This document shows, piece after piece, positions 3,124-10,237 of a DNA stretch of 10,237 nucleotides. Made by a program: the position numbers and the translations under genes. The number at the start of each line of letters is the position of its first letter. Within the stretch, counting starts at the first letter, position 1. The stretch is taken from assembly GCA_964457525.1 (NCBI GenBank), contig CAYWGS010000053.1:1-10237 (forward strand), in the 5' to 3' direction. The notes beneath the pieces are model-generated. The model worked only from the letters and a program-made list of their open reading frames with translations. It was not told the DNA's origin and made no database searches. Source of the DNA: an uncultured Erysipelotrichaceae bacterium. GTDB taxonomy: Bacteria > Bacillota_I > Bacilli_A > Erysipelotrichales > Erysipelotrichaceae.

Positions 3124-3966
3124 TTGATTAAAACAAAGAAAGTATGGTTTGCTGGGATAATCTTGTTTCTTGCGGCCTGTACACAAACAACGGAAAGCAC
3201 ACATATTGTTTTGCAAAGAGCTGATGAGAACACAATCTTAAGTGCTGCCATTGTTTCACCTTTTACGTTTGAAGAGAGCGTTGAGACGACTTATGATAAG
3301 ACAACCATTAAAACGGTCCTTAATCCAATGGATAACACAAGAACGGGTTATTCTTGGCTCATATCAAAAGTGAGTGAGGGTAGCGTAGGCTATACTGAAA
3401 CTCGATATCGTTCAACTTATGATAGTGAGGGGAATCTACTATCAAAAGAATATATTCCGGATTCAGAAGTTTATTATGATGGTAAGCCAACGATTTACCA
3501 ATATGGTGCAAAAGTTGAAAAAGGTGCTTACTTCAATGCACGTTCAATTACGAAGTATGGTTATGATTGTACTGGATGTTATATTGGTTTAGATGGAGCA
3601 GCAGGAACGTCTGCTGGGATTCGTCTAAATGGAACAAGCATTCGTCAATCCAATGGTACTTGGTTGGATGGCATTACCTATGATGGTTATTATGTTGTGG
3701 CGGCTGATAAAGCATTCCCAAATTGTACTATTTTAGAAATTTCAAATCATACCTTTAGTGGAATGGGATTATCCCCAGATGTTCCATTCAAGGCTTTAGT
3801 TGTGGATCGTGGAAGCGCGATTACGACAAACAAACTTGATCTATTTGTTGGTAGCGAAAAGAATATCAATGTGGTGACAAATAAGCGTACTGCAAATAGT
3901 AAGGTTACAGTGGTTGGGTTCCTTAAGTGGACAAAGAATGGATTAGGCGAACGTATTTGTAAATAA
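3124..3966 (+). CDS. Secreted lipoprotein with a G5-like region and a C-terminal 3D (RlpA/MltA-like double-psi barrel) domain; YabE-like cell-wall protein
   Basis: TTG start with an AGGAG RBS. Signal peptide plus lipobox: MIKTKKVWFAGIILFLAAC. The C-terminus (YGYDCTGC...GTSAGIRL...YYVVAADKAFPNCTILEI...ALVVDRGSAITTNKLDLFVGSE) carries the conserved Asp pattern of 3D domains. The position just upstream of rnmV-ksgA matches yabE in Bacillus. Confidence 0.75.
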   Translation: MIKTKKVWFAGIILFLAACTQTTESTHIVLQRADENTILSAAIVSPFTFEESVETTYDKTTIKTVLNPMDNTRTGYSWLISKVSEGSVGYTETRYRSTYDSEGNLLSKEYIPDSEVYYDGKPTIYQYGAKVEKGAYFNARSITKYGYDCTGCYIGLDGAAGTSAGIRLNGTSIRQSNGTWLDGITYDGYYVVAADKAFPNCTILEISNHTFSGMGLSPDVPFKALVVDRGSAITTNKLDLFVGSEKNINVVTNKRTANSKVTVVGFLKWTKNGLGERICK

Positions 3967-4015
3967 GTCATTTATAAAATGACGTGATGCGTTGATTTAA
4001 ATCAACGCGTTTTTT
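3967..4015 (+). terminator. Tandem hairpins and intrinsic terminator after the lipoprotein gene
   Basis: First hairpin GTCATTT-ata-AAATGAC (3967-3983). Then the perfect 20-bp palindrome GCGTTGATTTAAATCAACGC (3989-4008), followed by GTTTTTT. Confidence 0.8.
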
Positions 4016-4038
4016 ATGCCCGAGAAGTCCCGAGATAA

Positions 4039-4167
4039 CTTGAAGATGACCTAAATATGACTCAAGACCAAGCTAGATATATAATTGAAAAATGGCTGGA
4101 TAAAGGGAAGATTGTTAGAATTGGTGGAAGTTCTAAGACAAAATATACACGAAATACAAAGATTTAA
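4039..4167 (+). pseudogene. Remnant of the C-terminal winged-helix end of a larger gene (Fic / AlbA_2-HATPase-type regulator tail)
   Basis: The open frame reads LEDDLNMTQDQARYIIEKWLDKGKIVRIGGSSKTKYTRNTKI*. The pattern ...A.YLL.KL...G.L.R.G.GR.T.Y is the usual C-terminal wHTH of such proteins. There is no RBS before the ATG at 4057, and the frame opens right after the upstream terminator. Confidence 0.4.
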
Positions 4168-4245
4168 ATTGAACATATAAGATTATTAGGGAATATTTAT
4201 GGACAGTGATTTGATTTCACTTGAAAGTTTCAATATATTAAGTTT

Positions 4246-4330
4246 GTACCAAGCAGTGGGGGAAGTTGTTTGGATCTAAACTTAAAGATTATCTTTAAGG
4301 AGAAGGCTAAGGAAACTTAGTCTTTTATTA
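4246..4330 (+). ncRNA. Candidate ~85-nt small RNA, or orphan promoter plus terminator left from a decayed gene
   Basis: Promoter: TTGATT (4211-4216), 17 nt, TATATT (4234-4239). Three hairpins follow. First, CCAAGCA/TGTTTGG (4249-4273). Second, the perfect 9+1+9 palindrome CTTAAAGATtATCTTTAAG (4281-4299). Third, GGCTAAG-GAAA-CTTAGTC (4305-4322), followed by TTTTATTATGTTTT. No ORF with an RBS. Confidence 0.3.
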
Positions 4331-4343
4331 TGTTTTATAGAGT

Positions 4344-4388
4344 TAAACTATAATAAGAATCAAAAAAATCACTGCTTATTATAGTTTA
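4344..4388. repeat. Perfect 14-bp inverted repeat with a 17-nt spacer
   Basis: TAAACTATAATAAG (4344-4357) and CTTATTATAGTTTA (4375-4388). Each arm contains TATAAT when read outward or inward. Confidence 0.6.
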
Positions 4389-4438
4389 GAAGCATAAAGT
4401 ATAATAACACGTCATAAATAGGCATATTTTGACTTGAA

Positions 4439-6691: not shown

Positions 6692-6928
6692 ATGAGCATG
6701 ATAACACTACGTGTCAGTGAAGAAGAGAAAAAAGTATTACAGAAGTACGCTGACTTTACAGGAGTTTCTTTAAGTGAGTTTATCAAATCGAGAGTTTTAG
6801 AGAGTATTGAGGATGAATATGATCTTAAGATGATTGAAGAATATGAGAAGAATAAAAAGAATCATACGACAGAATTCTATTCACTCGATGAAGTAAAGAA
6901 ATTACTGGGAATCGATGATGAACTATAG
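6692..6928 (+). CDS. Type II antitoxin, ribbon-helix-helix (RelB / DUF6290-like)
   Basis: 78 aa. The N-terminal ITLRVSEEEKKVLQKYADFTGVSLSEFIKSRVLE fits an RHH fold, followed by an acidic IEDEYDLK tail. AGGAGG RBS. Overlaps the toxin gene. Confidence 0.85.
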   Translation: MSMITLRVSEEEKKVLQKYADFTGVSLSEFIKSRVLESIEDEYDLKMIEEYEKNKKNHTTEFYSLDEVKKLLGIDDEL

Positions 6929-7190
6929 GGTTAAGTTTGAAAAGAATGCATTAAAGAGACTTACCAAGATTGATGTGAATCAAAGAATTATTCTTATGTC
7001 TTGGATACAAAAGAATTTAGATCAATGTGAGAATCCTAGAAGACATGGGAAGGCATTATCAGGGGGTTTAAATCAATATTGGTCTTATCGTGTTGGGGAT
7101 TATCGGATTGTGGTTGAGATATGTGACAATGAATTAATTGTGTTTGTAATTTCTTTAGGTCATCGTAGAGATATTTATAACAAAATATAA
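6915..7190 (+). CDS. Type II toxin, RelE/ParE superfamily mRNA interferase
   Basis: 91 aa. The sequence ...YWSYRVGDYRIVVEICDNELIVFVISLGHRRDIY is the canonical RelE/StbE C-terminal core. The start is ATG 6915 or 6918, overlapping the antitoxin by 14 or 11 nt. Confidence 0.9.
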   Translation: MMNYRVKFEKNALKRLTKIDVNQRIILMSWIQKNLDQCENPRRHGKALSGGLNQYWSYRVGDYRIVVEICDNELIVFVISLGHRRDIYNKI

Positions 7191-8616: not shown

Positions 8617-9602
8617 GGGGTCAAGGAAGCATGAAAGATATTATCGTTTTTGCGCTTACATCAAGCGTGTCATTAGCGGATGAAATTTGTACACATTTAG
8701 GGATTAAGCGTGGAGAGATTTCGGTTAGACATTTTGCGGATGGTGAAATCATCGTAGAACCGCTTGAGTCTGTACGTGGTAAACATGTTTTCATTGTTCA
8801 GTCTACTTGTAGTCCTGTATCAGAAACATTGATGGAAGTCTTAGTCGCATTAGATGCGTGTAAACGTGCTTCTGCGGATAAGGTTACTGTGGTTATGCCT
8901 TATTATGGTTATGCTCGACAAGATCGTAAGGCGAGAGCTAGACAACCGATTACAGCTAAATTGGTTGCGGATTTAATTCAAGTTGCAGGTGCTGATCGTG
9001 TTATTACCTTAGATTTACATGCGCCTCAAATTCAAGGTTTCTTCAATATTCCGATTGATGATTTAACCGCTGTTTCTATGTTAGGTCAATACTTCAGAAC
9101 GAAGAAATTCAAAGAAGAAGTTGTCGTAGTTTCTCCGGATCATGGTGGTGCAACTCGTGCTCGTAATTTAGCGGACACCTTACCTGGAAGTACCATCGCG
9201 ATTATTGATAAACGTCGTACGAAACCAAATGTAGCAGAAGCGATGAATCTTATCGGGGATGTGAATGGTAAGATTGCGATTATCGTAGATGATATTGTGG
9301 ATACGGGTGGTTCTTTAATGGGTGGAGTTGATATGTTGTATGCGAATGGGGCGACTGAAGTATATTGCGCTTGTTCACATGGTATTCTTTCAGGTAATGC
9401 CGTACAACGTATTCATGATTCCAAGATTAAAGAGCTTGTGGTCACAAACTCGATTCCTCTTAATGATGAAAAGCGTAAAGAACCTAAACTCAAACAAATC
9501 TCTATTGGTTATATGTTAGCGAAGACCATTCAAGCGGTTCAACTACATACGCCTGTTAGTGAAATGTATGATATGTTCAATGATAAGAGTAAGGATAATT
9601 AA
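8613..9602 (+). CDS. prs: Ribose-phosphate pyrophosphokinase (PRPP synthetase, class I)
   Basis: Motifs FADGEI...VFIVQST, MPYYGYARQDRK, DLHAPQIQGFF and the PRPP-binding IIVDDIVDTGGS. ATG 8613 overlaps the glmU stop (ATGA) and has AGGAG 5 nt upstream. An alternative start at ATG 8631 (MKDIIVF) is possible. Confidence 0.95.
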   Translation: MRGQGSMKDIIVFALTSSVSLADEICTHLGIKRGEISVRHFADGEIIVEPLESVRGKHVFIVQSTCSPVSETLMEVLVALDACKRASADKVTVVMPYYGYARQDRKARARQPITAKLVADLIQVAGADRVITLDLHAPQIQGFFNIPIDDLTAVSMLGQYFRTKKFKEEVVVVSPDHGGATRARNLADTLPGSTIAIIDKRRTKPNVAEAMNLIGDVNGKIAIIVDDIVDTGGSLMGGVDMLYANGATEVYCACSHGILSGNAVQRIHDSKIKELVVTNSIPLNDEKRKEPKLKQISIGYMLAKTIQAVQLHTPVSEMYDMFNDKSKDN

Positions 9603-9617
9603 TAGTTAATGAAAATG

Positions 9618-9650
9618 AGATATATGTGTCTATAAACATATATCTTTTTT
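9618..9650 (+). terminator. Intrinsic terminator after prs
   Basis: 10-bp stem AGATATATGT/ACATATATCT with an 8-nt loop, followed by TTTTT. Confidence 0.85.
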
Positions 9651-9852
9651 GTATACAATATTATATAAATAAATCCGAATGATACACTAGATGCGGAAGT
9701 ATTTTATAGATAATTTAAAGCGTACATAAAAGATCCTAAAAAATATTCCTAGACTTATGGATTATACTTAGGGACTTCGTTTAGAATATAAAGTACGGCG
9801 AATGTTAGGGATATGGTTATAGAAATTCTGAGCTTAGATGGTATAATCTAGA

Positions 9853-10053
9853 GGTAAAGGCTGAAATATACCGCGAGGCTTGACTCGTAAATAACTTGGA
9901 ATTCGTGTAGAACGTATGGGTCTACAAGTCGGTTGGCGACGAAAAACCAAAAATTCGTTTGAAATGTATAGGTTCAAATGTTGACAAGCAACGAAACAAT
10001 CAAGCGTTAAAGAGATGTATGAAAACTTTGGAGACCTTACATCTCTTTTCATT
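9853..10053 (+). ncRNA. Candidate ~200-nt structured non-coding RNA of unrecognised class (independent sRNA or orphan leader)
   Basis: Perfect extended -10 TGgTATAAT at 9839-9847. No ORF with an RBS. Serial hairpins at 9873-9888, 9906-9926, 9931-9948 and 9956-9980. An 11-bp terminal hairpin AAAGAGATGTA/TACATCTCTTT (10009-10048) is followed by TCATT. Visibly less AT-rich than the flanking spacers. Confidence 0.35.
9898..10001 (+). repeat. Diverged tandem duplication (2 x 52 nt), each unit carrying a 6-bp hairpin with a 9-nt loop
   Basis: Units 9898-9949 and 9950-10001 are identical at 31 of 52 ungapped positions by hand count. Unit A core: AATTCG-TGTAGA-ACGTATGGG-TCTACA. Unit B core: AATTCG-TTTGAA-ATGTATAGG-TTCAAA. 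A third ATGTAT lies at 10015, one further period downstream. Confidence 0.6.
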
Positions 10054-10237
10054 AGTAGAATAATTATATTAAATATTGTCTTATTTTATGTAACATCAAA
10101 TTAAATGTTATTATTTAATCAATTTAGTTTGAATAGCTAGTTTCAATTCAATTTTAAACTTTCAAATATAGATTTTTTAACTCGGGAGTTTGACACTTCA
10201 AAGAATCATTAAATAACACAAGTCCTTGTAAATAAAG

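Follow-up and report, generated by a model that had tools for sequence, protein, structure and literature searches.

Downstream of prs, the window (the whole stretch of DNA analysed, 10,237 nt) carries a member of an apparently undescribed family of structured RNAs that lie directly upstream of genes for PBECR4 proteins. The two are laid out as a type III toxin-antitoxin or abortive-infection module, and we put at about 60% the probability that the RNA family is the partner of PBECR4 in such a module and that the window holds an antitoxin-like orphan of this family. Taken as a whole, positions 9820-10055 (+) are best explained as, and probably are, a complete gene for an RNA of about 200 nt, its transcription being predicted.

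Promoter and terminal hairpin of the RNA element

The locus is made up of the following features, in which L107 denotes the corresponding locus of a close relative.

9682-9819, + strand: remnant (pseudogene) of a 198-aa ORF; aligns to L107 747-889 with 119 of 138 positions identical, frame disrupted
9820-9847, + strand: sigma-70-type promoter from the promoter scan; TAGAAA (-35), 16-nt spacer, extended -10 TGgTATAAT at 9839-9847
10009-10055, + strand: terminator-like terminal hairpin; 11-bp stem 10009-10019 / 10038-10048, tail TCATTAG
10056-10182, no strand: AT-rich deletion scar in place of the PBECR4 gene; similarity to L107 ends right after the hairpin, and the 70 of 128 identical positions are at chance level for AT-rich DNA
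10183-10237, no strand: strain-specific end of the window, differing from six otherwise near-identical contigs (L001-L006)

A prs terminator, an extended -10 box, a stretch less rich in A and T than its surroundings and an 11-bp terminal hairpin had all been named in the preliminary description of this DNA, and each was found again. The prs terminator is visible in the sequence itself: an A/T-rich hairpin of 10 bp (9618-9645) followed by TTTTT. The promoter, TAGAAA-16 nt-TGgTATAAT at 9820-9847 (+), is a 10/12 match with the TG extension and the top promoter-like site within 9400-10237, and a -10 box occupies the equivalent alignment position in most of 42 homologues; in Erysipelothrix phage phi1605 the promoter reads TTGACA-17-TGcTATACT. 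The window -35 is the product of a 45-nt deletion relative to L107, which replaced the original -35. As it stands, the window -35 is poor and the extended -10 is perfect. The GC fraction is 0.38-0.45 over 9800-9950 and 0.17-0.27 on either side.

The terminal hairpin occupies 10009-10048; its arms, AAAGAGATGTA and TACATCTCTTT, enclose a loop of 18 nt, and TCATT comes next. A simple terminator scan misses the hairpin because its loop is longer than 8 nt. Both helices of the hairpin show compensatory changes across the 42 homologues, and the RBS and ATG of PBECR4 come after it. Conserved as the hairpin between RNA and toxin gene is, its T-run is often short or interrupted (in many homologues there are 3-5 U among the first 9 nt), and the window hairpin is weak, with a folding energy of -9.4 kcal/mol against a family median of -22.5. 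Its loop is CUUUGG, in place of the c(UNCG)g of most homologues.

The element is an RNA gene on the + strand

No known RNA signature had been recognised in the region before, and Rfam likewise gave no match to it, either at the gathering score or at E<=10. Within the window, ARAGORN detected no tRNA or tmRNA, and Rfam 15 gave no gathering-threshold match for 6S RNA, SRP RNA, tmRNA, RNase P, T-boxes, riboswitches, ribosomal leaders or others. The element was also without an Rfam match in 16 homologous loci, and a BLAST search of plasmids returned chance AT-rich matches only. A degraded ctc/rplY or other gene was considered and rejected, with stops in all six frames and no Pfam match. The candidate novel RNA proposed earlier thus has no entry in Rfam 15, nor is it a protein-coding gene in decay. 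As had been stated, no ORF of at least 60 aa begins on the + strand after 10053.

The 72-aa ORF that had been noticed on the minus strand is indeed present (9834-10052), and the gene caller annotated it on contig L001; as a single sequence, the minus strand also folds slightly better (z = -1.86). The possibility that the region codes for protein, or for an RNA on the minus strand, is nevertheless negligible. The ORF has no Pfam match and is broken in homologues (in phi1605 it is split into pieces of 45 and 34 aa), and substitutions track base-pairing rather than codons. Many G-U pairs fit the + strand only, becoming C-A on the other, and the promoter, the T-run and the downstream gene all lie on the + strand.

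The RNA family precedes PBECR4 genes

With the window alone as query, nhmmer detected homologues at E values of 1e-23 to 1e-37, and on the P0001, P0003 and P0006 contigs it placed the element ahead of each PBECR4 gene. An intergenic stretch of phage phi1605 that carries no annotation matches the element at 82% identity, and a PBECR4 gene follows it directly (PF18813, E 5.8e-22). We built a covariance model, R1, of 138 positions from 35 non-redundant homologues; the window sequence, itself among these seeds, scores 110.4 bits (E 8e-24) at 9872-10009 (+) and covers model positions 1-138 of 138. Of the 87 PBECR4 loci that offer 214 nt or more of upstream sequence, 86 have an R1 match 5' of the gene, on its strand and with a gap of 51-76 nt to the start codon; essentially no PBECR4 gene without the RNA was seen. 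R1 had no match in 80 prs control loci (~760 kb). A pattern scan of viral contigs yielded 20 loci, and scans of viral contigs with the first exact block and with the window-clade pattern gave no match.

No neighbouring protein family is shared across 42 non-redundant loci, which leaves the RNA as the sole conserved companion of the predicted toxin; the family is a self-contained mobile pair of RNA and toxin gene, from which the window copy departs in having no toxin. The RNA also stands before genes other than PBECR4, namely a lipoprotein-like gene in L165, L159, L163, L166 and L169 (minus-strand copies), a 61-aa ORF in L152, and small ORFs or a Fic/Doc gene in L196, L198, L201 and L206. A 145-aa ORF that follows the L191 copy was considered as ToxN-like and rejected, as it has no Pfam match. 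Elsewhere, the RNA and its hairpin are retained beside a toxin gene that is truncated (L203, L205), frameshifted (L200) or interrupted by an in-frame stop (phi1605). Such an order of decay, in which the toxin goes first and the RNA is kept, is typical of toxin-antitoxin modules.

PBECR4 (PF18813) is described in Pfam as a predicted BECR-fold RNase. Its AlphaFold model is of high quality by pLDDT (94), Foldseek found no neighbour in the PDB at E<0.1, and a sequence comparison with the PDB gave no match; with no usable neighbour by fold or by sequence, the RNase assignment stays a Pfam-level prediction. PADLOC and NCBIfam had no match to PBECR4. Residues E40, H50, K94 and K125 (P0001 numbering) are conserved in the protein. 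In the literature PBECR4 is mentioned once, in passing; no paper ties BECR-fold or PBECR4 proteins to RNA antitoxins, and a 2026 ncRNA-mining preprint (10.64898/2026.09.22.753630) does not use the word PBECR4.

Fold of the RNA

A string of local hairpins had been described for this region; the actual fold is long-range and pseudoknotted. Folded as a single sequence, the + strand is no more stable than expected by chance (z = -0.32), which means that hairpin folding alone is no evidence and that significance comes from the homologues. The core consists of 2.5 tandem units of ~52 nt, in which the loops of hairpins H0, H1 and H2 pair crosswise with the tails T3, T2 and T1, and is modelled as a compact, pseudo-twofold, pseudoknotted arrangement of the following elements.

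9853-9872, + strand: P0, 5' hairpin GGTA...TACC from the MFE fold; a hairpin of variable sequence is at the same place in homologues
9874-9887, + strand: hairpin H0, CGAG[GCTTGA]CTCG; loop 9878-9883 pairs with T3 10000-10005
9895-9946, + strand: repeat unit 1 (52 nt), comprising T1, SL1, H1 and A-rich GAAAAA
9895-9898, + strand: T1, CTTG; pairs with the H2 loop
9907-9925, + strand: stem-loop SL1; covaries
9928-9940, + strand: hairpin H1, GTCG[GTTGG]CGAC; stem covaries, loop TTGG at 9933-9936
9947-9999, + strand: repeat unit 2 (53 nt), comprising T2, SL2, H2 and A-rich GAAACAA
9947-9950, + strand: T2, CCAA; pairs with the H1 loop TTGG at 9933-9936
9959-9977, + strand: SL2; 99.6% paired
9980-9992, + strand: hairpin H2, GTTG[ACAAG]CAAC; loop CAAG pairs with T1
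10000-10005, + strand: T3, TCAAGC; pairs with the H0 loop GCTTGA, by which the entire core is closed

The evidence for this fold lies in how its partners change together. On alignment A3, made with MAFFT from 42 sequences that are less than 92% identical, the full model with its pseudoknots is 86.7% paired, compared with 32-52% when the partners are slid, and reaches a covariation score of 0.469, compared with 0.10-0.16; none of 500 shuffles attained 0.469. The core is 94% paired on alignment A4. The 66 distinct sequences aligned by the CM give the core 97.1% pairing and show compensatory changes in 22 of 23 pairs; counts from alignment A5 are biased towards the structure, this alignment having been fitted to the model. 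The helix between the H0 loop and T3 is 100% paired in the 66 distinct sequences and 6/6 of its pairs have changed on both sides, and the H0 stem covaries as well (GGTG/CACC vs CGAG/CTCG). The T1-H2 loop helix, likewise 100% paired, covaries through the pair sets TCCG/CGGA, CCCG/CGGG, TCTG/CAGA, TTCG/CGAA and CTTG/CAAG, and the T2-H1 loop helix is 95.8% paired. P0 is weakly supported, at 48% paired in A3, because its columns are poorly aligned. In the window, the pairs CTTG/CAAG, CCAA/TTGG and TCAAGC/GCTTGA and the stems SL1, SL2, H0, H1 and H2 are all able to form.

The repeats are recognisable by TRF in homologue L094 (period 53, 1.9 copies, 77% matches). Those of the window, two full units of 52-53 nt and a partial one, are diverged and co-folding and fall below the TRF threshold. 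A variant with a single unit occurs at L152 1771-1872. RAAAA segments are conserved in the family.

Could the RNA be a cis-acting leader?

The main rival to the toxin-antitoxin reading is that the RNA is a purely cis-acting leader, riboswitch-like or a protein-responsive attenuator, which would sense a ligand or factor, set read-through of the hairpin into a cargo gene and have no antitoxin activity; the window would then hold a leader without its gene. The RNA occupies the 5' UTR at a distance of 51-76 nt from the start codon, and a conserved hairpin with T-run intervenes before the gene. Its complex, conserved, pseudoknotted fold is aptamer-like, and in the AbiF system the RNA RCd22 also reduces transcription of the downstream gene (PMC12373285). 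Since the RNA precedes genes other than PBECR4, including the unrelated lipoprotein-like genes and the 61-aa ORF after the L152 copy, a generic leader would fit these loci too.

Against a leader of this kind stands the behaviour of the terminal hairpin. Pairing of the segment 9850-9860 with the 3' arm of that hairpin, put forward earlier as a possible sign of attenuation, proved not to be conserved (the duplex z is -1.64 for the window and averages -0.5 over 42 homologues, no better than shuffles), and in ensembles that model nested structures the probability of the 5' arm pairing upstream is 0.00 in 42/42 homologues. No mutually exclusive structure was found, and the core and the hairpin share no nucleotides and are separated by a linker. 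Moreover, the number of units varies (1 or 2), a trait shared with type III antitoxins. The RNA, promoter included, has repeatedly outlived its gene (window, L203, L205), and a predicted toxin would be left without any other conserved antidote. We regard the leader account as unlikely, if worth keeping in mind.

Tandem-aptamer riboswitch leaders with an intrinsic terminator resemble the family: they too lie in the 5' UTR, have an intricate conserved fold and duplicated units, and place a hairpin with T-run before the gene. They differ in that no competition between terminator and antiterminator is detectable here, nor any Rfam riboswitch match; that the downstream gene encodes a predicted toxin rather than a metabolic or transport function; and that the RNA keeps a promoter of its own and outlasts the loss of the gene.

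The window copy has lost the PBECR4 gene

L107 belongs to a close relative (128 of 129 positions of the prs 3' end are identical) and has the order prs, 198-aa ORF (intact at 293-889), RNA, intact PBECR4 (1180-1797). What had been taken for an AT-rich spacer after prs (9682-9819) is in fact the broken 3' end of this 198-aa gene. On the other side of the RNA, neither a PBECR4 ORF nor a tblastn remnant of one is present in window 10040-10237 or in L001 11420-11760, and the last 55 nt (10183-10237) have no match among the fetched sequences. The toxin gene and most of the 198-aa gene were deleted, and the window RNA is best read as an orphan, an antitoxin-like RNA without its toxin.

Of the preliminary proposal of a structured RNA of ~200 nt, the + strand, the promoter of its own, the terminal hairpin and the presence of structure have all stood, while a free-standing sRNA family has not. 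The RNA is the upstream partner or leader of a two-part module, found before PBECR4 in 86/87 loci, and appears independent in the window only because the downstream gene was deleted. Its neighbourhood with prs is incidental: in GTDB genomes of related genera the element is absent downstream of prs at all of 80 prs loci, among which the nearest prs is 71% identical (Erysipelothrix / Erysipelotrichaceae). A prs-linked or rplY-type leader was rejected on the same count (0/80).

The orphan is perhaps a relic, or perhaps retains a use against related toxins that arrive from elsewhere. That it is an inert remnant of the deleted module, untranscribed or unused and slowly decaying, is somewhat unlikely in our view, although several features would agree with it. 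The window lacks the toxin gene as well as the gene upstream of the RNA, the -35 has been replaced through the 45-nt deletion, and the window hairpin falls into the weakest class of the family, with its UNCG loop mutated to CUUUGG. A single SNP among seven strain contigs in the region gives a population signal neither way. By contrast, the window RNA is 97% identical to that of L107 (193/199), compared with 86% for the adjacent remnant (119/138; Fisher p = 4.5e-4) and 89% for L001 and L107 beyond the island (Fisher p = 1.4e-4). All core helices and the perfect extended -10 are intact, and the full-length CM score of 110 bits equals those of copies that keep the toxin.

A neighbouring gene offers another candidate partner. 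In L001-L006, about 300 nt off and beyond the window end, lies a 326-aa Abi_2 gene (PF07751, E 6.5e-36), and AbiF systems use an RNA antitoxin (PMC12373285). The idea that the element is the AbiF-type antitoxin RNA of this gene is effectively refuted by the linkage data, since L107 and 85 other loci pair the RNA with PBECR4 and without Abi_2. The Abi_2 gene of the sister contigs runs towards the element from the other strand, whereas known abiF RNAs sit 5' of their gene on the same strand (PMC12373285), and the Rfam abiF model RF03085 has no match in the window or in L001 10900-13100.

Proposed function and relation to known systems

An intact module of the kind we propose would comprise, in order, its own promoter, a 5' hairpin, 2.5 units of ~52 nt, a hairpin with T-run, an RBS and PBECR4. 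Most transcripts would end at the hairpin, leaving the RNA in excess, and read-through would yield little toxin. The RNA would bind and neutralise PBECR4, and a halt of its synthesis or its decay, for instance upon phage infection or loss of the element, would free the predicted RNase. More tentatively, PBECR4 and its RNA may form an unrecognised type III toxin-antitoxin or abortive-infection family in which the antitoxin is a single pseudo-twofold RNA, its units "domain-swapped" through the three co-varying loop-tail helices. Orphans such as that of the window might then be kept by acting in trans against PBECR4 proteins of the same "code" from phages or mobile elements (a phi1605-type module), in an anti-addiction or counter-defence role; we consider this extended proposal speculative.

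Type III toxin-antitoxin systems are few, comprising ToxIN, CptIN, TenpIN and the recently characterised AbiF and AvcID, and have been informative on phage defence, RNA-protein recognition and the origin of Cas13. The present family adds a well-supported structured RNA, with more than 60 distinct sequences, near-perfect covariation and three long-range helices, and links it to PBECR4, an uncharacterised predicted RNase family that lacks a solved structure and on which hardly anything has been published. Should the RNA be an antitoxin, the type III class would gain a toxin fold and an RNA architecture that are both new, the tolerance of a solitary "toxin-like" phage gene would be explained, and the co-varying loop-tail "code" would provide a tractable system for RNA specificity. 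The window orphan would be a natural test case for whether RNA antitoxins without a toxin are kept for protection in trans.

The family resembles ToxIN, CptIN and TenpIN in the succession of promoter, tandemly repeated RNA, terminator-like hairpin and (predicted) endoribonuclease gene, in a pseudoknotted RNA with varying repeat number, in modules carried on phages, prophages and defence islands, and in the occurrence of orphan RNA copies. It differs from the ToxN/AbiQ family in its toxin, which is PBECR4 (PF18813) and has no PADLOC or NCBIfam match, and no similarity to ToxN/AbiQ, CptN, TenpN or ToxI-type RNA was found (Pfam gives PBECR4 only; PADLOC, NCBIfam and Rfam give nothing). The repeats of ToxI are near-identical and are cut apart by the toxin, whereas the units here, of ~52 nt in 2.5 copies, are diverged and cross-pair within one molecule.

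A further parallel is AbiF. The RNA of that system (RCd22 of C. difficile, or AbiFr) is a single molecule with two related structured motifs and a terminator; it shares a transcript with the gene of a toxic protein that targets RNA, and is active in cis as well as in trans (PMC12373285). The family resembles AbiF/Abi_2 in the two related motifs in one RNA, in a terminator or terminator-like hairpin and in the phage-borne context. The protein is a HEPN Abi_2 there and PBECR4 here, and RF03085 does not match the element. The units here are locked by three long-range loop-tail helices, and RCd22 has not been described in this way. Two motifs would suit a toxin dimer.

A putative transcription unit downstream of prs

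The prs gene, which ends at 9602, has an A/T-rich hairpin with a T-run 3′ of it (9618-9650). A promoter scan placed the top promoter-like site of the region at 9820-9847 on the plus strand (TAGAAA-16 nt-TGgTATAAT), and GC content is 0.38-0.45 over about 9850-10050 versus 0.17-0.27 on either side. The GC-richer stretch ends in an 11-bp hairpin at 10009-10048, and its sole sizeable ORF (72 aa, minus strand) had no Pfam match. An Rfam 15 search of the window gave no match, whether at gathering score or with E<=10; neither a tRNA nor a tmRNA was found there. The promoter, GC rise, hairpin, absence of a plus-strand ORF and blank Rfam result thus bear out the preliminary description of a promoter-led, ORF-free, less AT-rich stretch matching no known RNA family. 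Its claim that the stretch folds into hairpins held for the terminal hairpin, but single-sequence folding was uninformative as evidence (z = -0.32 on the plus strand, -1.86 on the minus strand).

The RNA precedes genes for a predicted RNase

A sensitive BLAST search of phage records matched 9874-10071, with 82% identity, to an intergenic region of Erysipelothrix phage phi1605 that carries no annotation. The phage has a promoter at the equivalent place (TTGACA-17-TGcTATACT). The terminal hairpin recurs there with altered base pairs, and an RBS and an ATG lie immediately 3′ of it. The gene that follows is PBECR4 (PF18813, E 5.8e-22; "phage-Barnase-EndoU-ColicinE5/D-RelE-like nuclease 4"). The first phi1605 copy is broken by an in-frame TAA and annotated from an internal ATG; an intact version is a 208-aa protein (P0001). 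The RNA-PBECR4 module occurs twice in the phi1605 record (MF172979.1 12813-12949 and 84517-84653; loci L209 and L210), within a ~14-kb duplicated block that lies close to either end of the 90-kb record and encodes a DEAD helicase, a type III R-M system and serine recombinases.

On the contigs of three PBECR4 proteins (P0001, P0003 and P0006), nhmmer with the window query detected the element immediately 5′ of, and on the same strand as, every PBECR4 gene (E 1e-23 to 1e-37). A PBECR4 alignment (A2) was used to fetch 83 further loci from viral and metagenome collections, and a covariance model built on the RNA core (R1) was then run over the loci. R1 found the RNA in 86 of the 87 PBECR4 loci with at least 214 nt of upstream DNA, ending 51-76 nt (median 67) before the start codon, while about 760 kb of control prs loci gave zero matches. 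The window copy scored 110.4 bits (E 8e-24) as a full-length match at 9872-10009. Given that no neighbouring protein family was common to 42 non-redundant loci, the RNA and PBECR4 form a two-part module that is self-contained and inserts into many settings.

A conserved pseudoknotted fold

Elements of the RNA in window coordinates
9853-9872 (+): P0 hairpin, GGTA...TACC
9874-9887 (+): small hairpin H0, CGAG[GCTTGA]CTCG
between H0 and T1 (+): A-rich linker
9895-9898 (+): tail T1, CTTG
9907-9925 (+): stem-loop SL1
9928-9940 (+): small hairpin H1, GTCG[GTTGG]CGAC
3′ of H1 (+): A-rich segment, GAAAAA
9947-9950 (+): tail T2, CCAA
9959-9977 (+): stem-loop SL2
9980-9992 (+): small hairpin H2, GTTG[ACAAG]CAAC
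3′ of H2 (+): A-rich segment, GAAACAA
10000-10005 (+): tail T3, TCAAGC
10009-10048 (+): terminal hairpin

The RNA contains two tandem units of 52-53 nt each (9895-9946 and 9947-9999), and H0 with its A-rich tail resembles the 3′ half of a further unit. In a homologue, L094, TRF reported a period of 53 with 1.9 copies and 77% matches; the window copy of the repeat falls under the TRF threshold. A long-range helix joining T3 to the loop of H0 emerged from RNAalifold, and inspection revealed two more loop-tail helices, in which T1 pairs with the H2 loop and T2 with that of H1. These three helices are nested mutually and pseudoknotted relative to the H stems, and the core is predicted to be compact and pseudo-twofold.

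In a MAFFT alignment of 42 sequences with <92% identity (A3), the full model of 53 pairs was 86.7% paired with a covariation score of 0.469, compared with 32-52% and 0.10-0.16 when partners were slid 1-3 columns, and none of 500 shuffles reached any measure. For the trimmed core (A4), pairing reached 94% and 27 of 35 pairs showed compensatory changes; in A5, comprising 66 distinct sequences in a covariance-model alignment that leans towards the model, pairing was 97.1% and 22 of the 23 pairs were compensatory. The loop-tail helices were paired in 100% (H0-T3), 100% (T1-H2) and 96% (T2-H1), with several different pair sets: T1/H2, for example, reads TCCG/CGGA, CCCG/CGGG, TCTG/CAGA or TTCG/CGAA, and CTTG/CAAG in the window clade. 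Covariation extends to the terminal hairpin, which in most homologues has a 13-16-bp stem with a c(UNCG)g tetraloop (median energy -22.5 kcal/mol); that of the window clade is shorter (-9.4 kcal/mol, loop CUUUGG). The RNA is assigned to the plus strand by its many G-U pairs and by the promoter, T-run and gene 3′ of it.

An orphan copy in the window

Locus L107 matches the window at 128 of 129 positions of the prs 3′ end and is 89% identical in the genes past the island to L001, a near-identical sister contig of the window; by these alignments, its source is a very close relative. Its order is prs, a 198-aa ORF (293-889; no Pfam or NCBIfam match), the RNA, an intact 205-aa PBECR4 (PF18813, E 5.7e-24), DUF6155 and further genes. 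Of the 198-aa ORF, the window keeps the 3′-terminal ~140 nt with the frame broken (119/138 identical), so that 9682-9819, previously taken for AT-rich spacer, is really the 3′ end of this ORF. A 45-nt deletion in the window took out the old -35.

The window RNA is 193/199 identical to that of L107, better conserved than the adjacent ORF remnant (Fisher p = 4.5e-4), and every helix is intact. Similarity stops directly 3′ of the hairpin, and no PBECR4 remnant was detectable in the window. Conserved RNA, intact helices and the missing remnant together indicate that the window copy is an orphan RNA gene; it may be an inert relic or still be used. Toxin decay with the RNA and hairpin kept occurred independently elsewhere, by truncation (L203, L205), a frameshift (L200) and the stop in phi1605.

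A candidate RNA antitoxin

The module has the hallmark order of type III toxin-antitoxin and abortive-infection systems, namely promoter, repeated structured RNA, terminator-like hairpin and predicted RNase gene. It further resembles them in lacking a conserved partner other than the RNA, in its variable unit number (a single-unit version lies at L152 1771-1872), in frequent toxin-first decay and in its phage or defence-island settings. On these grounds, an RNA antitoxin with an added role in transcription attenuation seems to us the likeliest function (probability roughly 60%). The RNA would neutralise the predicted RNase PBECR4 and also attenuate its transcription. Two RNA units would suit a toxin dimer, as likewise for AbiF-RCd22 (PMC12373285), and the conserved single-stranded RAAAA segments 3′ of each H hairpin are, speculatively, candidate recognition or cleavage sites.

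The main rival is a purely cis-acting leader. In an unbiased motif scan of viral contigs, 8 of 16 copies have PBECR4 3′ of them, the remainder preceding truncated toxins or unrelated genes (small ORFs, a Fic/Doc gene), and in L165 and four related loci a lipoprotein-like gene lies 3′ of a second RNA copy; these findings fit a generic leader. However, terminator/antiterminator competition was not found, the hairpin 5′ arm having an upstream pairing probability of 0.00 in 42/42 ensembles, and the attenuator pairing of the 5′ segment with the hairpin 3′ arm suggested earlier is not conserved in homologues. We regard this rival as rather unlikely.

What appears new under the RNA antitoxin reading is a toxin family and an RNA fold joined in type III-like logic, with the window instance as an orphan member. 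The RNA family is absent from Rfam 15. The AlphaFold model of PBECR4 is confident (pLDDT 94.2); Foldseek returned no PDB neighbour at E<0.1, a sequence search of the PDB no match, and PADLOC and NCBIfam searches none; PBECR4 is without a solved relative. The literature searched mentioned PBECR4 once, in passing, and contained no link of BECR-fold proteins or PBECR4 to RNA antitoxins.

The second RNA copies (L165 4216-4362, minus strand; also L159, L163, L166 and L169) carry a different T1/H2 "code", are convergent to the PBECR4 module and precede a 219-aa lipoprotein-like gene. At L198 1119-1253 (minus strand), a copy whose c(UACG)g hairpin is short precedes a 51-aa ORF and, in place of PBECR4, a Fic/Doc-family gene (PF02661, E 7e-15). 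L152 1617-2403 is a tandem array of non-coding RNA elements, an arrangement repeated in L157. The array may be a cluster for RNA-based counter-defence or regulation.

Elements of the L152 array
1617-1653: abiF RNA
1658-1770: drum RNA
1771-1872 (RNA): single-unit PBECR4-associated RNA, with hairpin and 61-aa ORF
3′ of these, to 2403: full two-unit RNA and PBECR4

A further drum RNA lies at L114 5174-5282.

Genomic surroundings

The prs protein was found on many sewage-metagenome contigs, six of which (L001-L006) share >99% identity with the window as far as base 10182, beyond which they diverge. The last 55 nt of the window (10183-10237) matched none of the fetched sequences and may be a strain-variable junction, an insertion end or an assembly join at a defence-island edge. 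The next gene in L001-L006 lies beyond the window:

L001 11736-12716 (about window-equivalent 10348-11328), convergent with the element: Abi_2 (AbiD/F-like) gene, 326 aa

The RNA antitoxin of AbiF systems lies 5′ of the gene on the same strand (PMC12373285). We rejected the element as an AbiF RNA partner because it is on the opposite strand and no RF03085 abiF RNA was detectable within 2 kb of the L001 Abi_2 gene, which may thus rely on another RNA or on no RNA.

Judged by prs, Erysipelothrix and Erysipelotrichaceae MAGs come closest (71% identity), and the element is absent from their prs loci. Elsewhere in the window, an inserted DUF6290/RHH antitoxin and ParE toxin pair (6692-7190) separates ispE from glmU, interrupting the otherwise conserved row rnmV-ksgA-ispE-glmU-prs. 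At 3966-4414 the window is without a ~2.6-kb segment of L001 and L006 (L001 3170-5802) encoding DUF4352, a 110-aa ORF and a Fic gene, a further strain-variable insertion in the same region.
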